The notes beneath the pieces were generated by a model that ran no database searches, was not told the origin of the DNA, and was given only the letters and a program-made list of their open reading frames with translations. 64,000 nt of DNA from Candidatus Poribacteria bacterium (GTDB taxonomy: Bacteria > Poribacteria > WGA-4E > PCPOR2b): assembly GCA_965215015.1 (NCBI GenBank), contig OZ244042.1, forward strand, positions 1,056,001-1,120,000, in the 5' to 3' direction. The first letter of the stretch is position 1, and each line of letters starts with the position of its first letter. A program made the translations under genes and the position numbers. Below, one piece after another: positions 26,460-35,355 of the stretch.

Positions 26460-27032
26460 CAGGTGGATGGCATAACCTGGGACGAGGTAGAACGAGTCTG
26501 TGCACTTGCCGAAGTGGATAAAACCACAACAGGGTTAAGGGATTCGGCACTGATTCGACTGATGAGTGATTGCCTGTTACGAATCAGTGAAGGGGTCGCG
26601 GTAGATGCCGAGGATATCGATAGCGTGTTGACCATTCATCAATCAAAGACTGACCACGAATGGGAAGGTACAACGCTGTATGTTGGCGATCCCACACGGG
26701 AGGTGATAAATCGGTATTGTGAAGCAGGAAACATCACCTCAGGCCCCCTCTTTCGGCGGATTCGTCGGGGGGACAATATAACCCACAGCAGACTGAGTGT
26801 AGGCGGTGCAAGAAACGCTATTAAGTGCCGGGCACGCGCAGCGGGTGTGGAAGGCTTTATCTCTGGTCACTCCCTTCGTGTTGGTTCCGCTGTAGCACTT
26901 GCCCAAGCGGGAGCGTCCGTTGTAGATACGCAGGTTGCAGGCCGATGGAAAGAATCGCGGATGCCAGCGTGTTACGCACGGGCAGAATTGACAGACCAAA
27001 CCGCGATTGCACGCTTCAAATACAAAAAATGA
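26460..27032 (+). mobile_element. Cre-like tyrosine recombinase catalytic domain (N-terminally truncated)
   Basis: LLRISE (R), SKTD (K), GHSLRVG (H-x-x-R), GRW, CY (Y); core-binding domain absent. Confidence 0.88.
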
Positions 27033-30871: not shown

Positions 30872-30922
30872 CGATAAGCCAACGATTAAAACCGATTCGC
30901 AACTAAGGAGATAAACCAACCG

Positions 30923-31405
30923 ATGCAACAATTGAACAAAGCCATTGCTTGGGCTATTGTGTTGTTCCTTCACTCGCAATTACTCGTTCAGGTATTTGCC
31001 GCTGAACCGGAACGAATTGCCTTGGTAGAGCTCAAGCACCTATTAGATGCCAAAGAGAATGTAATTCTAGTTGATGTGCGCGCCCCGATTCATTATAACT
31101 TCGGGCATATCCCCGGTGCTATCTCAATGCCATTTTCGGAGGGGATTGAAGCGAGACACCAAACACTTCCTCCCGATGGGCTAATTGTTTTATACTGAAG
31201 CTGACGGGCGGAAGCAACAAGTGCCCGTGCGGCACAAATGTTAATAGAGGAGTTTGGTTTTCCCCCGGAACGGGTAAGAGTGCTTCAAGGGGGTCTTCCC
31301 GCATGGCGGGAGGCTGGCTATCCAGTTGAAATTACAGCGGCAGTCCAACCGAAAGGAAAACGCTTCGGTCTGTGGGGCCGGATTAAATCGATAGGTCGAA
31401 GGTAG
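30923..31405 (+). CDS. Exported rhodanese-like protein, predicted selenoprotein with two in-frame TGA codons (U-S-U)
   Basis: Signal peptide; LVDVR, GHIPGA, IVLY-TGA-S-TGA-RAEATSARAA, VLQGGLPAWREAGYPV, C-terminal AVQPKGKRFGLWGRIK; stop TAG 31403-31405. Confidence 0.8.
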
Positions 31406-31451: not shown

Positions 31452-33549
31452 TCAGATAAAAATCTTATAGGTCTGAATACCGAAGGTCATCCCGATGATT
31501 GTCCAGAGGCTGCCAATCACATAGTCACCGAGAATCAGTCCTAAAAACAGGGGAGCCACCTGCCGATGCACCCGGAGTCCACCGTACCGGAGAATAACAG
31601 GCTTAATCACCCAAGTCACAAGGGACACAGACCAAAAATAATCCATTGCATAGCTCGTGGCTAGTGCGTACCCAGCAGGATGGAAGGGCCACCACAAGAA
31701 ACGCATTCGCATGAACATGATAAAGAAACTCACCGCAGCACCACCTATCGCGTAAGAAGTCCCAGCGGTGTCCGCATCCAATGGGTTGAGCAACCAACCT
31801 CGCAGCAGTCCAAAGGATCGCCACCCCATCCAATATTGTGCGCCCCTTGCCTGAGTGACGACGCCGTCTCGAAAAGTCATATCCAAGTTTGCCCAAAAAC
31901 TGGCTAAAATTCCCACAACAGCGGCAATCAGCATAGCCCCTAAGACACCGCGATAGCCTATTCCGGGCGCGTTTGCCATTTTGAACGCTTCAATCTGATT
32001 CGGCATTGGGTGACTCCGATACCCTCGATTGAACCAAGCGAACAACGCAATAATCGTCAAACTAGCTGGATTAATCCGCCGCGTTCCAAACACGGTTGTC
32101 ATGATAAGTTGAGGGCTGACGAAAAGGAGCGCATGAGGTGTGCCGCCCTCCGCTCGAACACGAGTAATCGCAACTGCAAGTAGAAAATAAAGCCCGCAGA
32201 AGCACCCCGTAACCCAGACTGCCATCCCCGCGGCAGATGTGAACACCCCACGACCCAAGACAAGAATGCCCAGCACCGCCCACCGATAAGGCATCGGTTC
32301 GTCAGAATCATCCAGCGTTGAATCAATGCCGATAACCTTTTTGCCAACTTGAATCAGATGCCGACGTGTCATCCATACCGCCGTGCAGAAAACTGTAATC
32401 CACGCCCCATAAGACTGCTCATTAAGCTGAGGGAAATGCCACGCACCCGTCGCTGCGCCAATGACCCGTTCAATCATACGGATAGCGAAGAAGAACCAAC
32501 ATGATAGCAAAAGTTCAATCGGGAGAAAGAACGCTAATCCGATCCCAAATGGGTACAGATAAATCCGTATCCAAGCTATTACAGTCCACGGGTGATCTGA
32601 GAAGATGCCGGGCCAAATTGGCGTCGTCTTGATGCACGGAATGCCGGGGATGAGTGTATAAAGAAAATGAATCCCATTAATCACACCGATAGCCGCGGCG
32701 ATGCCGAACCCAATCCACATCATCCGATTTTTCAGGAGTCTAACCCCTTATTTTCAAATGATTCAGCTGTTTATGGTCCATTAATTTAAACGTATCCATC
32801 ACGCTCGGCATCATTGATAAGCGTACGTAAAACATACAAATCATCTCCTAATACACCAAGATGGTTGGGCTGGCAGCACCCAGCGGGCGTGTGTCGGTAA
32901 AGGGCCTGATTAAATCGGTAGGACGAAATGTCGATTGAATGAATAGCATACCACCTTCGGAGATCAGTCGCGTCATCACAATCATGATAATCAGAAACAG
33001 GCAATTTACGGTGAGACTAACGACAAAAGATACGCCAGCAATCACACTCCACATAGTCATGGTCCCGATCCCAATTAACAGACCGAGCCATGCCGCTCGT
33101 GGGGACATCGACTCATTCGCTAACTCGACTGATGATCTATCAGCAGGGTCTGATGGGTTCGATACCTGTCAGCCGGATGGAACGCAAGGCGGACCGTGTT
33201 CACCGACATGGTGAAAAAAGGTGATGTTCCACTCGTTTTCGGGGGACTGATAGTAGGTGGGCGCGATGACAATGGGAATGAAATACGCAGCAAAACCCAG
33301 CGATGAGATACCCGCGCTCACCAGTGTCATCCCGTAGATAGTTACCAATTCAGAATGGACGAGGGGTGTCCCGATGCGGTGCAGGAGGGGGTTGACTACC
33401 AGTTGGAGAAACACAAAGACCATCAGGACGCCAACCGGCAGGTGGCAGGAAGCGAGCCATGTACCTCGAATCCAAAAATCCCCAATTGGCGTGGCAATGG
33501 CAAGGATTATCGTTGCGAAGATTCCTATTAATACGCTACGTGTGGTCAT
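31452..33549 (-). pseudogene. Remnants of two tandem paralogous polytopic membrane proteins (DUF6785/DUF6784, OPT-like putative peptide transporter)
   Basis: N-terminal piece 33549-33169, middle piece 33108-32848 (ANESMSPRAAWLG), second-copy C-terminal part 32723-31452 (SDEPMPYRWAVLG, WWPFHPAGY, FLGLILGD). Confidence 0.7.
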
Positions 33550-33849: not shown

Positions 33850-35355
33850 ATGAACGAATATGATCTAACCATTATCGGGGGCGGAAGTGCAGGCTTGGTT
33901 CTAGCGGTGGCAGGTGCCAAGTTAGGAGTAAAAACAGCCCTCGTCGAGAAGCACCGATTGGGGGGCGATTGCCTCTGGACAGGGTGTGTGCCATCGAAAG
34001 CCATCCTCAAATCAGCGAAGATTGCCCATTACGTCAAAGAAGCTGAAAAATACGGCGTCCTCGTGAAAGACGCGCAGGTGGACTTTGCACGGGTTATGGC
34101 GTATGTTCGCAGCACCCAACAGACCATCGAGCGCGAGCATGATAATCCGGAACGATTCCGTGAAATGGGTGTAAATGTCATCTTCGGGGAAGGGCATTTT
34201 GAATCGCCAACAACCTTTGTGGTTCAAGACACAGAGAACAACCAAACCCTCACGCTCAAGAGCAAAAAATTCGTCATCGCAACCGGCTCTCGTCCAACCG
34301 CACCCCATATTCCCGGGATAGATTCCGTCAATTATCTGGACAGCGAAAATGTCTGGGAATTAGATCAATTGCCCGAAAGGCTATTGGTGATAGGCGCGGG
34401 TCCTATCGGGGTTGAGTTGGGACAGGCATTTCATCGTTTGGGCGCAAAAGTGACGATTCTGCAACGCAGCGACCGGATTTTAACGAAAGAAGACCCGGAA
34501 GTCTCTGAGAAAATGTTGGATTACCTTCGAGAAGATGGGGTTGAAATTCTCTTAAATACCAATCCCGTTCAGATCGACCCGATCAAAGCCTCACTTAGCC
34601 AAGAACTCAATCCGGATATAGCAGTATGGGAAACGCAAAATACCGAGACATCGGAGGAGTATCGGATTCAGCTCAAGACAGCAGATACAGGGGATGAGCG
34701 CGAAATGGTCGTCGATCGGATCCTGATTGCGGCAGGACGGAAGCCAAACATCGAAGGGTTGGAACTTGAGAAAATTGGTGTCAAGGTCGGAAAAAGGGGA
34801 ATTGAGGTCAACAATAAGTTGCAAACAACCGTCAAAAGTATTTATGCTGCTGGCGATGTGATTGGACATTACCTATTTACACATGTTGCAGCGTTTCAAG
34901 CGACGCAGATTGTTCGGAATATCTGTTTCCCCGGTTCTGGTGCGGTAGACTATTCCGTCGTCCCTTGGGCCACCTTCTGCGATCCGGAGGTCGCTCGGTG
35001 CGGTCTCACCGAAGCGGAGGCTCGTGAAAAACATGGAGCGATCGATGTTTTCAGAGTGGATCTCCACGATGTCGATCGCGCTGTCGCCGAGGGAGACACG
35101 AAAGGGTTTATCAAGGTCGTTGCGACCCGTTGGACGGGAAAACTTTTGGGAGTTCACCTAGTCGGATCAAATGCGGGAGAAGTCATCCACGAGTTTATCT
35201 TGGCGATGAATGCGAATATTCCGTTGAGGAAGTTAGCGGGAATCATCCACATTTATCCGACGTTTTCGAGCATCGTTTGGCGGGTTGCCGGAAAATGGCT
35301 TGCCGAAGGCACCTTGATCCAAACAGTACGCGGCATATTCAGGAAAGGGAAATAA
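33850..35355 (+). CDS. Pyridine nucleotide-disulfide oxidoreductase (dihydrolipoamide dehydrogenase/MerA-like)
   Basis: GGGSAG, GGDCLWTGCVPSK, GAGPIG, HIYPT; no C-terminal CC. Confidence 0.9.
   Translation: MNEYDLTIIGGGSAGLVLAVAGAKLGVKTALVEKHRLGGDCLWTGCVPSKAILKSAKIAHYVKEAEKYGVLVKDAQVDFARVMAYVRSTQQTIEREHDNPERFREMGVNVIFGEGHFESPTTFVVQDTENNQTLTLKSKKFVIATGSRPTAPHIPGIDSVNYLDSENVWELDQLPERLLVIGAGPIGVELGQAFHRLGAKVTILQRSDRILTKEDPEVSEKMLDYLREDGVEILLNTNPVQIDPIKASLSQELNPDIAVWETQNTETSEEYRIQLKTADTGDEREMVVDRILIAAGRKPNIEGLELEKIGVKVGKRGIEVNNKLQTTVKSIYAAGDVIGHYLFTHVAAFQATQIVRNICFPGSGAVDYSVVPWATFCDPEVARCGLTEAEAREKHGAIDVFRVDLHDVDRAVAEGDTKGFIKVVATRWTGKLLGVHLVGSNAGEVIHEFILAMNANIPLRKLAGIIHIYPTFSSIVWRVAGKWLAEGTLIQTVRGIFRKGK

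Follow-up and report, generated by a model that had tools for sequence, protein, structure and literature searches.

The locus described here raises the question of whether a gene interrupted by two TGA codons that lie a single codon apart is a broken gene or is read through both of them as a selenoprotein. The gene is found in the window, a stretch of 64,000 nucleotides (nt) of a Candidatus Poribacteria genome (positions 1,056,001 to 1,120,000 of contig OZ244042.1, assembly GCA_965215015.1), and encodes a small protein of the rhodanese type. The original prediction, made from the nucleotide sequence, was that of an exported rhodanese with two selenocysteine (Sec, U) residues in a U-x-U active site. 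We conclude with high confidence that the gene is a real selenoprotein gene and that translation continues past both of its UGAs, a di-selenoprotein reading that is supported by the conservation of the UGAs, the presence of the Sec machinery, the selection acting on the protein and a conserved hairpin. That both positions are Sec and are served by one hairpin also seems quite likely from the sequences compared. Sec insertion itself, the double use of one hairpin and the export of the protein are what we propose to account for these observations. The gene and its main codons are located as follows.

30923..31405, + strand: full putative selenoprotein coding sequence, 160 codons and a TAG, with two in-frame UGA codons (translated with TGA as U)
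31196..31198, + strand: first UGA, codon 92, taken as Sec here; Cys (TGT or TGC) in 9 of 48 orthologs
31199..31201, + strand: Ser93 codon AGC between both UGAs, its synonymous site frozen; AGC in 42 of 42 Ser codons, entropy 0
31202..31204, + strand: second UGA, codon 94; TGA in 48 of 48 orthologs, alignment columns 10-12 invariant
30905..30910, + strand: Shine-Dalgarno-like AAGGAG, 12 nt 5' of the ATG, by direct reading of the sequence
31028..31312, + strand: rhodanese homology domain, residues 36-130 (Pfam PF00581, 1.3e-16)

The letters at 31193-31207 are TAC TGA AGC TGA CGG, with the TGA codons at 31196-31198 and 31202-31204. A translation with TGA read as U runs from the ATG at 30923 to the TAG at 31403-31405 and consists of 160 residues, including U92 and U94, with zero other stops; the frame is therefore open past TGA-AGC-TGA up to 31405, as had been claimed. 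In the table-11 list of open reading frames (ORFs) the same gene is cut in two, 30923..31198 (91 amino acids) and 31238..31405 (55 amino acids). The match to Pfam Rhodanese (PF00581) reaches 61.3 bits versus a cut-off of 22.2 and covers model positions 4-101 of 102 (98 positions), a whole domain above the gathering score. This match is nearly whole only with read-through, and the part behind the TGAs is thus needed to complete the domain, which bears out the earlier statement that the read-through part finishes the rhodanese fold. The intact C-terminal motif that had also been described, the stretch AVQPKGKRFGLWGRIK, was found and is kept in the orthologs.

When 176 genomes of the Poribacteria phylum were searched in six frames (E <= 1e-20), 48 matches in 47 genomes were obtained; the matches are orthologs of the same length, with identities to the window protein that range from 86% down to approximately 41%. 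By family, the matches were distributed as 24/28 (f1), 11/11 (f3), 6/7 (f4) and 0/112 (f2). Two internal TGA codons are present in 39 of the 48, a single TGA in eight, and one TGA accompanied by a TAA, which is the true stop, in the remaining one; the active-site motif is Y-U-x-U in 39 and Y-C-x-U in nine. The occurrence of the same two TGAs at the same codons in 39 of the 48 orthologs makes this a feature beyond chance. Codon 92 is exclusively Cys or TGA and never Trp or Arg, so that an in-frame UGA aligned with Cys in homologs, the usual mark of a selenoprotein, is found at this position in 9/48.

The region beyond the TGAs is constrained as strongly as the one that precedes them. Within the genus, the median ratio of nonsynonymous to synonymous substitutions (dN/dS; 169 pairs) was 0.18 for codons 28-91, 0.19 for codons 106-136 and 0.30 for the C-terminal tail, which means that the purifying selection expected downstream of the TGAs matches in strength that acting upstream. 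Residues A96, E97, S100, G123, G124 and W128, all beyond the TGAs, are invariant in a 40-row alignment composed of 39 Poribacteria orthologs and the relative P0084. These results bear on the possibility that the gene is a pseudogene, or that a truncated product of 91 residues is made and the frame beyond it merely happens to be open. Automatic annotation agrees with it by ending the gene at the first TGA: among 78 close database entries, 73 are 91 amino acids long and cover 57% of the query, hence they end at that codon. However, both TGAs are kept in 39 orthologs, the fold is complete only with read-through, and the downstream dN/dS together with the invariant residues exclude a pseudogene or a 91-residue product for practical purposes.

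Runs from RNA libraries contained a fraction of 0.07 of the sampled words. A contig of a relative assembled from such a library (X19 record 9; 31-letter rule, 85% likeness) matches 30949-31269 with 46 differences in 321 bases and spans both TGAs; no difference at 31196-31204 is among those listed, with 57 differences being unlisted and RNA libraries being able to hold DNA.

The genome, a single contig of 5.94 Mb with 49.3% G+C, was found to contain selA, selB, selC (the gene for tRNA-Sec) and selD, the complete set that the original prediction called for. Their positions on this contig (G000:C1) are the following.

4763339-4766646: selA (529 bits), selB (371 bits) and tRNA-Sec, side by side
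3518779-3519699: selD (369 bits), itself a selenoprotein gene with a TGA at 3518806

The tRNA-Sec was called by aragorn, scored 76.5 bits with Rfam and adjoins selA/selB. The UGA of selD is followed by a hairpin, AGUCC-AGUU-GGACU, which starts approximately 12 nt downstream and is comparable to the hairpin of the rhodanese gene described below. The same genome speaks to whether TGA could stand for an ordinary amino acid such as Trp, as it does in codes 4 and 25, which would turn the loop into W-x-W. Two full-length public gene calls, P0065 (LYWSWPAEATS) and P0152 (FYWGWRGEHTS; a U-G-U variant with an f4-like tail), do carry W at the TGA positions, presumably as a result of the wrong code having been chosen by the gene caller. 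However, the gene for release factor 2 (RF2), prfB, is present (511.7 bits), tRNA-Sec is the sole tRNA with anticodon UCA in the genome, and TGA is the true stop at the aligned C-terminus in 29 of 43 orthologs; taken together, they indicate that TGA is a normal stop that is recoded in special contexts only. Since, in addition, 73 of the 78 close entries stop at the first TGA and relatives have Cys, and not Trp, opposite positions 92 and 94, we regard a reassigned code as extremely improbable.

The selenocysteine insertion sequence (SECIS) of bacteria is a hairpin located 3' of the UGA, and an element of this kind was identified at the expected place.

31221..31235, + strand: SECIS-like hairpin GUGCC-CGUGC-GGCAC, in codons S100-Q105, with a stem of 5 base pairs (bp) and a loop of 5 nt

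The hairpin starts 16 nt past the second TGA, and its apical loop lies 27 nt past the first UGA (UGA1) and 21 nt past the second one (UGA2). Pairing is maintained in 48 of 48 orthologs; these represent 38 distinct sequences, in which all five stem pairs are standard in 190 of 190 cells. Compensatory changes occur in two of the five pairs, U-A to C-G in L082 and L084 and C-G via U-G to U-A in L069 and L072. None of 500 shuffles reached the observed pairing or covariation score, and pairing fell to 20-66% when the partner columns were slid. A first covariation test, carried out with 43 sequences, was not significant (108 of 500 shuffles reached the score), and covariation was clear once five more distant orthologs had been added. 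In other phyla the hairpin is found at the same place with more compensatory pairs, for example a loop-closing C-G changed to U-A in L140, L101 and L135. A SECIS-like hairpin 3' of both TGAs, an element that the original prediction named as part of bacterial Sec decoding, is present and conserved.

The bacterial SECIS (bSECIS) model, as given in the relevant passages of a 2026 review, has a loop of 3-9 nt, a stem of 4-16 bp, a G in the first two loop positions (mostly G and then G or U), a distance of 16-37 nt from the UGA to the apical loop and a minimum free energy (MFE) of -7.5 or lower (PMC13188914). The element agrees with this model, its MFE being borderline: the second loop base is a G and the third a U or G in all 48 orthologs, and the MFE is -7.9 kcal/mol in the window, with a median of -7.8 and a range of -9.8 to -5.1 kcal/mol among the orthologs. 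The only match of Rfam in the region was sR16, with an E value of 3.3. Another structure, the MFE fold of the single sequence (CGGGC/GCCCG), was rejected because it needs codon 95, which varies among orthologs.

The nucleotides of this region are frozen just between the UGAs and within the stem. Codon entropy is exactly 0 at S93 (AGC), S100 (AGT), A103 (GCG) and A104 (GCA) and 0.49 at T99, in a gene where 30 of the 35 conserved columns with four-fold or six-fold degenerate codons have entropies of 0.83-2.11 bits. Two contigs from the RNA libraries that belong to more distant relatives (X16 record 4 and X19 record 11) match the block at 31193-31244 only and diverge on both sides; matches limited to the segment from the UGAs to the hairpin fit the view that nucleotide conservation within the gene is highest in this block.

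In the C-x-U orthologs the hairpin occupies the identical position, equally far from the single UGA, and no second hairpin was seen beside the one at 31221-31235. The simplest reading is therefore that one SECIS serves both codons. It also follows from the C-x-U orthologs that the first Sec is one base away from Cys (TGY versus TGA) and could have made use of a SECIS that was already there. A more restricted version would have only UGA2 read efficiently as Sec, with UGA1, 6 nt farther from the hairpin, acting as a selenium-dependent brake or being decoded by a near-cognate tRNA, in which case there would be no true di-selenoprotein. The observations that codon 94 is TGA in 48/48 orthologs and codon 92 is Cys in 9/48, that the distance from the hairpin to UGA2 is fixed in both forms, and that reviews give the family as CxU with one Sec in the passages concerned (PMC13188914) are all compatible with it. 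On the other hand, UGA1 is kept in 39/48 orthologs, down to approximately 45% identity, and in 35 rhodaneses of other phyla; its spacing of 27 nt is within the bSECIS range of 16-37 nt; and position 92 is solely Cys or TGA in the 48 orthologs, never Trp or Arg, as an exchange between Sec and Cys predicts. We consider Sec at UGA2 alone to be improbable and favor the translation of both UGAs as Sec.

The original prediction anticipated an alternation of Cys and TGA at both positions. The alternation was observed at position 92 (nine C and 39 U) and was absent from position 94, which is TGA in all 48 orthologs. It had also been assumed that the rhodaneses of this subtype carry Y-C-x-C; an all-Cys form does exist, P0084 (IYCACHAEATS), a single cluster that is the one found with Cys at position 94, but it is rare and the usual relative is C-x-U. 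A search with P0084 as the query returned only P0084 itself, the best 150 matches of a protein search with the 40-row alignment were mostly multi-domain rhodaneses, and a locus search with a pattern built from the Cys codons of that alignment found no relative. The exchange between Cys and Sec is thus well shown at position 92 and thinly at position 94, where, judging from the alignments, Sec seems to be nearly obligatory. In line with this, zero Cys homologs are tabulated for the rhodanese family in the corresponding part of Zhang and Gladyshev 2007 (PMC1976440). Locus L078 (G020:C20:6876-9172) encodes a distinct small exported rhodanese, in which a single in-frame TGA occupies the canonical catalytic position (LYUNSGRRS); it is another rhodanese selenoprotein form within the same bacterial family.

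The protein encoded by the complete frame was modeled with AlphaFold2 using the 40-row alignment. The mean predicted local distance difference test (pLDDT) value was 85.8, and values of 94-98 were obtained over residues 31-130. The model shows an N-terminal helix (residues 2-24), a strand (87-91) that leads into the loop U-S-U-R-A-E (92-97), a helix (98-110) and a tail helix of low confidence (148-157). Foldseek gave the rhodanese-like protein 3nhv as its top match in the PDB (1e-8), and Foldseek and a PDB profile search returned rhodaneses only (3nhv, 1yt8, 6mxv, 3tp9, GlpE and PspE). As we read the profile alignments, the catalytic Cys of C-X5-S loops, in 1yt8 domain 2 and in both 6mxv domains, aligns with position 94. 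Two further features flank the domain.

30923..31000, + strand: putative N-terminal signal peptide or membrane anchor, approximately residues 1-26, MQQLNKAIAWAIVLFLHSQLLVQVFA followed by AEP, deduced from the sequence
31340..31387, + strand: C-terminal tag A-V-x-P-K-G-K-x-x-x-L-W-G-x-I-K, residues 140-155, followed by five mostly basic residues

The N-terminus has, by eye, a basic n-region, a hydrophobic core and a V-F-A site, and is signal-like in all orthologs, which suggests that the protein is exported. The C-terminal tag is conserved in every one of the 39 orthologs in the 40-row alignment, P0084 being the only non-ortholog row and the one without it. Sixteen other ORFs of the genome terminate in a related form of the tag, A-V-x-P-[KR]-[GD]-K-L-x-T-x-W-G-x-[IL]-K plus 2-10 further residues; examples on G000:C1 are L162-L168 (4426350-4427114, 1562055-1562951, 3732041-3732853, 4890001-4890714, 1605285-1606085, 2318133-2319221 and 5703733-5704674). 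These 16 ORFs have mostly signal-like N-termini and unrelated domains (LamG, Kelch propeller, DUF3108-like), or none, that end before the tag, and no Pfam model was found over the tag. The tag may serve in sorting or anchoring and be specific to this lineage.

The distribution of the U-x-U form was determined by scanning 185,579 species genomes with an IUPAC pattern for Y-U-x-U-x-A-E followed by G-G-x-x-x-W at 66-84 nt. The scan returned 75 loci, with approximately 10 chance matches estimated; upon translation, 35 proved to be of the Poribacteria type (they overlap with genomes already counted), 35 were UxU rhodaneses from elsewhere and five were chance matches. The 35 from elsewhere belong to Chloroflexota (23), Desulfobacterota (four), Nitrospirota (three), Armatimonadota (two), Pirellulales (one), Pseudomonadota (one) and an unnamed lineage (one). 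In L088, L131 and L137, from metagenome-assembled genomes of Desulfatiglandaceae/Desulfobacteraceae, the UxU rhodanese is the N-terminal part of a fusion with a protein of approximately 520-590 residues that has eight CxxCH haem motifs, and a stand-alone C-x-U paralog with a signal peptide (FYCAU) is located 2 kb away or less. UxU and CxU paralogs lie 0.5 kb apart in L099, from an uncultured delta proteobacterium, and one UxU and two CxU rhodaneses are in tandem in L147, from an Anaerolineae genome. A gene tree of 69 rows and 111 columns, in which the non-Poribacteria rows were picked by the UxU pattern and the C/U counts are biased accordingly, requires five C/U changes at position 92, of which well-supported branches force only one; the tree does not discriminate between the directions C to U and U to C or identify the ancestral form.

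The family to which the protein belongs is already known. The best match in NCBIfam was NF041203, rhodanese_LYCAU, a 'rhodanese-related (seleno)protein', which is also the top family for 40/40 rows of the 40-row alignment and for 16/16 UxU relatives from other phyla. The window protein, with 71.9 bits, falls short of the equivalog cut-off (115 bits), as do all 40 aligned rows (best row, E 2.4e-24). A deltaproteobacterial UxU protein, L099 (LYUAUHAEHTSS), does pass, with 125.3 bits versus 115, and the curated family itself therefore contains UxU members. The window protein has in common with NF041203 the single rhodanese domain, a Sec in the second place of Y-[C/U]-x-U and the same S-A-R-[AV]-A helix with the hairpin in its codons; it differs in having Sec instead of Cys at the first position, a putative signal peptide and the lineage-specific C-terminal tag. 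With respect to the motif L-Y-C-A-U, as read from the name of the family, the second position is Sec and the first one is Sec in the window protein and Cys in nine orthologs.

Reviews list the family as CxU, under 'rhodanese-like form 3 / COG0607 form 2' (PMC9312934, PMC13188914), and the table in the latter gives it one Sec in the part concerned; the string 'UxU' was not found in the available text of the two reviews. Nevertheless, the architecture is not as unusual as originally predicted, since a UxU form of a rhodanese-related sulfurtransferase from deltaproteobacterial symbionts of Olavius algarvensis was in print in 2007, according to the passages on this protein (Zhang and Gladyshev 2007, PMC1976440), and 35 cases outside Poribacteria were found here. 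The window protein corresponds by description to that form: two Sec one residue apart in a rhodanese-related protein. The published proteins come from a different phylum, and the passages concerned hold no SECIS analysis for two UGAs (PMC1976440). The Desulfobacterota UxU members of the pattern scan are like the form that those passages describe. These proteins may already be included in Figure 3A or the supplementary data of that article, or in the tables underlying BSepDB (PMC13326102). A literature search by title and abstract for Poribacteria and selenocysteine returned nothing on this protein, and one under the name 'LYCAU' returned unrelated work only.

Other systems are more distant. 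TsoB (NF045694, rhodanese/DsbD fusion-like), in the part of the review table that lists it (PMC13188914), is also a rhodanese with two close Sec residues (UxxxxU) and gave a weak match (1.9e-7), but it is a fusion with another Sec spacing and a model of 572 positions, for which the window protein scored 29.6 bits versus a cut-off of 805. PspE and GlpE have the same fold and size (NF001195 GlpE, 1.9e-5; PspE models, 2e-5; PDB 1gmx and 2jtq) but have one catalytic Cys and no Sec, and the window protein scores far below their cut-offs. A weak local match (3e-8) was obtained with ExtH, the rhodanese of a selenite/tellurite operon. SelL, reportedly described by Shchedrina et al. in 2007 as a eukaryotic UxxU selenoprotein with a diselenide bond, resembles the window protein in its two Sec within one redox motif and would be a precedent for a natural diselenide; it differs in being eukaryotic and in its UxxU spacing. 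SelL has a thioredoxin-like fold and a SECIS in the 3' untranslated region. In summary, the protein is the Poribacteria branch of a known, curated and uncharacterised family, the UxU form of which was noted in 2007. What is new is the Poribacteria branch itself, which falls below the NF041203 cut-off, its putative signal peptide and its C-terminal tag, and the evidence for one hairpin that serves both UGAs.

The question then is what such a protein would do. We propose that the product is an exported rhodanese of 160 residues and one domain, whose active-site loop Y-U-S-U-R-A-E-A-T-S holds U92 and U94. SelB and tRNA-Sec would decode both UGAs with the aid of the one hairpin in the mRNA (31221-31235), which lies inside the coding sequence of the S-A-R-A-A helix at a distance permissive for SECIS function with respect to both codons. 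Because position 94 is invariantly Sec and, as we read three profile alignments, in register with the catalytic Cys of C-X5-S rhodaneses, U94 is taken as the putative nucleophile, which would accept a sulfane sulfur or a selenium atom. The other residue, U92 (or C92), would resolve the adduct through an intramolecular Se-Se (or S-Se) bond, and periplasmic electron donors would re-reduce the Se-Se bond. The protein would then be an extracytoplasmic chalcogen-transfer or reducing protein, not a plain sulfurtransferase. This chemistry was deduced from the rhodanese fold, the pair of residues at i and i+2, the extracytoplasmic features and the octahaem fusions. The pointers to an extracytoplasmic location are the signal-like N-terminus, the tag common to other proteins with signal peptides and the fusions to octahaem proteins in three Desulfobacterota relatives. 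The behaviour of C-x-C motifs and the periplasmic role of PspE form the background to this proposal. We offer the uptake by U94, the resolution by U92 and the periplasmic re-reduction as a tentative scheme, one that has somewhat less than an even chance of being correct.

The main rival to this chemistry takes the Sec pair as a ligand for soft metals or metalloids (Hg, As, Cu or the products of Te/Se oxyanions) in a periplasmic binding or detoxification protein, where it would not be catalytic. Sec in several predicted prokaryotic selenoproteins may bind metals, as suggested in a passage of the 2026 review (PMC13188914); the weak match to ExtH (3e-8) points in the same direction, as does the presence, in 11 congeners, of a MerA/Lpd-like flavoprotein gene directly downstream of the rhodanese gene on the same strand. 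The relevant neighbours in the window are the following.

33850-35355, + strand: MerA/Lpd-like class-I disulfide oxidoreductase, dependent on flavin adenine dinucleotide, with the redox motif GGDCLWTGCVPSK
31452-32723, - strand: DUF6785/DUF6784 membrane-protein gene, located between the rhodanese and flavoprotein genes

However, the flavoprotein is below every equivalog cut-off of NCBIfam, the nearest being MerA (403 versus 454 bits), its start is without a signal peptide, and the link between the two genes, found in one genus only, is given little weight. Furthermore, no transporter or metal-resistance gene is conserved nearby. Metal or metalloid binding is considered unlikely. The DUF6785/DUF6784 gene looks 5'-truncated or frameshifted in the window: its Pfam match begins only at position 207 of 498, the upstream frame is rich in stops and the orthologs extend further. 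A few kb upstream of the rhodanese gene, at 26463-27032 (+ strand), there is an ORF of 189 residues with the catalytic domain of Phage_integrase only (2e-14), which may be a remnant of a mobile element. Synteny with the neighbours is limited to the genus or family, and no shared partner gene was found across the 35 loci of other phyla.

Several observations weigh against the interpretation of the locus as a di-selenoprotein with the properties proposed. Three of the five stem pairs are invariant, so that much of the support for the hairpin comes from invariance and not from covariation; the hairpin is short (5 bp) and its energy is borderline with respect to the threshold of -7.5 kcal/mol. A lower stem flanking it (alignment columns 25-27 with 47-49) pairs in 69.7% of cells and was dropped. 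No experimental case of a bacterial SECIS shared by two UGAs came to light in a limited literature search, and an efficiency of UGA recoding of 30-40% in E. coli, as stated in a passage on that organism (PMC4513850), would make two UGAs costly. Cys at position 94 comes from one cluster only (P0084), and a homolog, P0196, has Arg at the second position (Y-C-S-R-P-A-E). The profile alignments disagree on which Sec would fill the canonical catalytic position: three point to 94 and one to 92, with which the catalytic Cys of 3nhv aligns, and the model ends the strand at residue 91 and starts the helix at 98. Finally, no partner gene is conserved beyond the genus, which leaves the proposed function without support from genomic context.

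In spite of these points, the locus is worth recording for the near-universal mis-annotation of the gene, the conservation of the hairpin across phyla and the C-terminal tag. The protein databases in effect lack an entire conserved selenoprotein, which occurs in sponge symbionts as well as in Chloroflexota, Desulfobacterota and other phyla. Two UGAs located 6 nt apart ahead of one hairpin constitute a compact natural system for the study of the spacing tolerance of SECIS elements and of the reloading of SelB within two codons. A Cys codon within the SECIS window is one base away from Sec, and this may explain the repeated switching between C and U at position 92. The U-x-U loop of the rhodanese would be a rare natural candidate for a diselenide in bacteria. 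Taken to its full extent, the picture would be that of one SECIS that programmes two Sec 6 nt apart, a catalytic diselenide, a family present in at least six phyla and an unrecognised selenium-dependent periplasmic pathway, a combination that we regard as possible and rather doubtful. If it is true, the octahaem fusion in Desulfobacterota and the sorting by the C-terminal tag in Poribacteria would mark a pathway of sulfur or selenium reduction or transfer.

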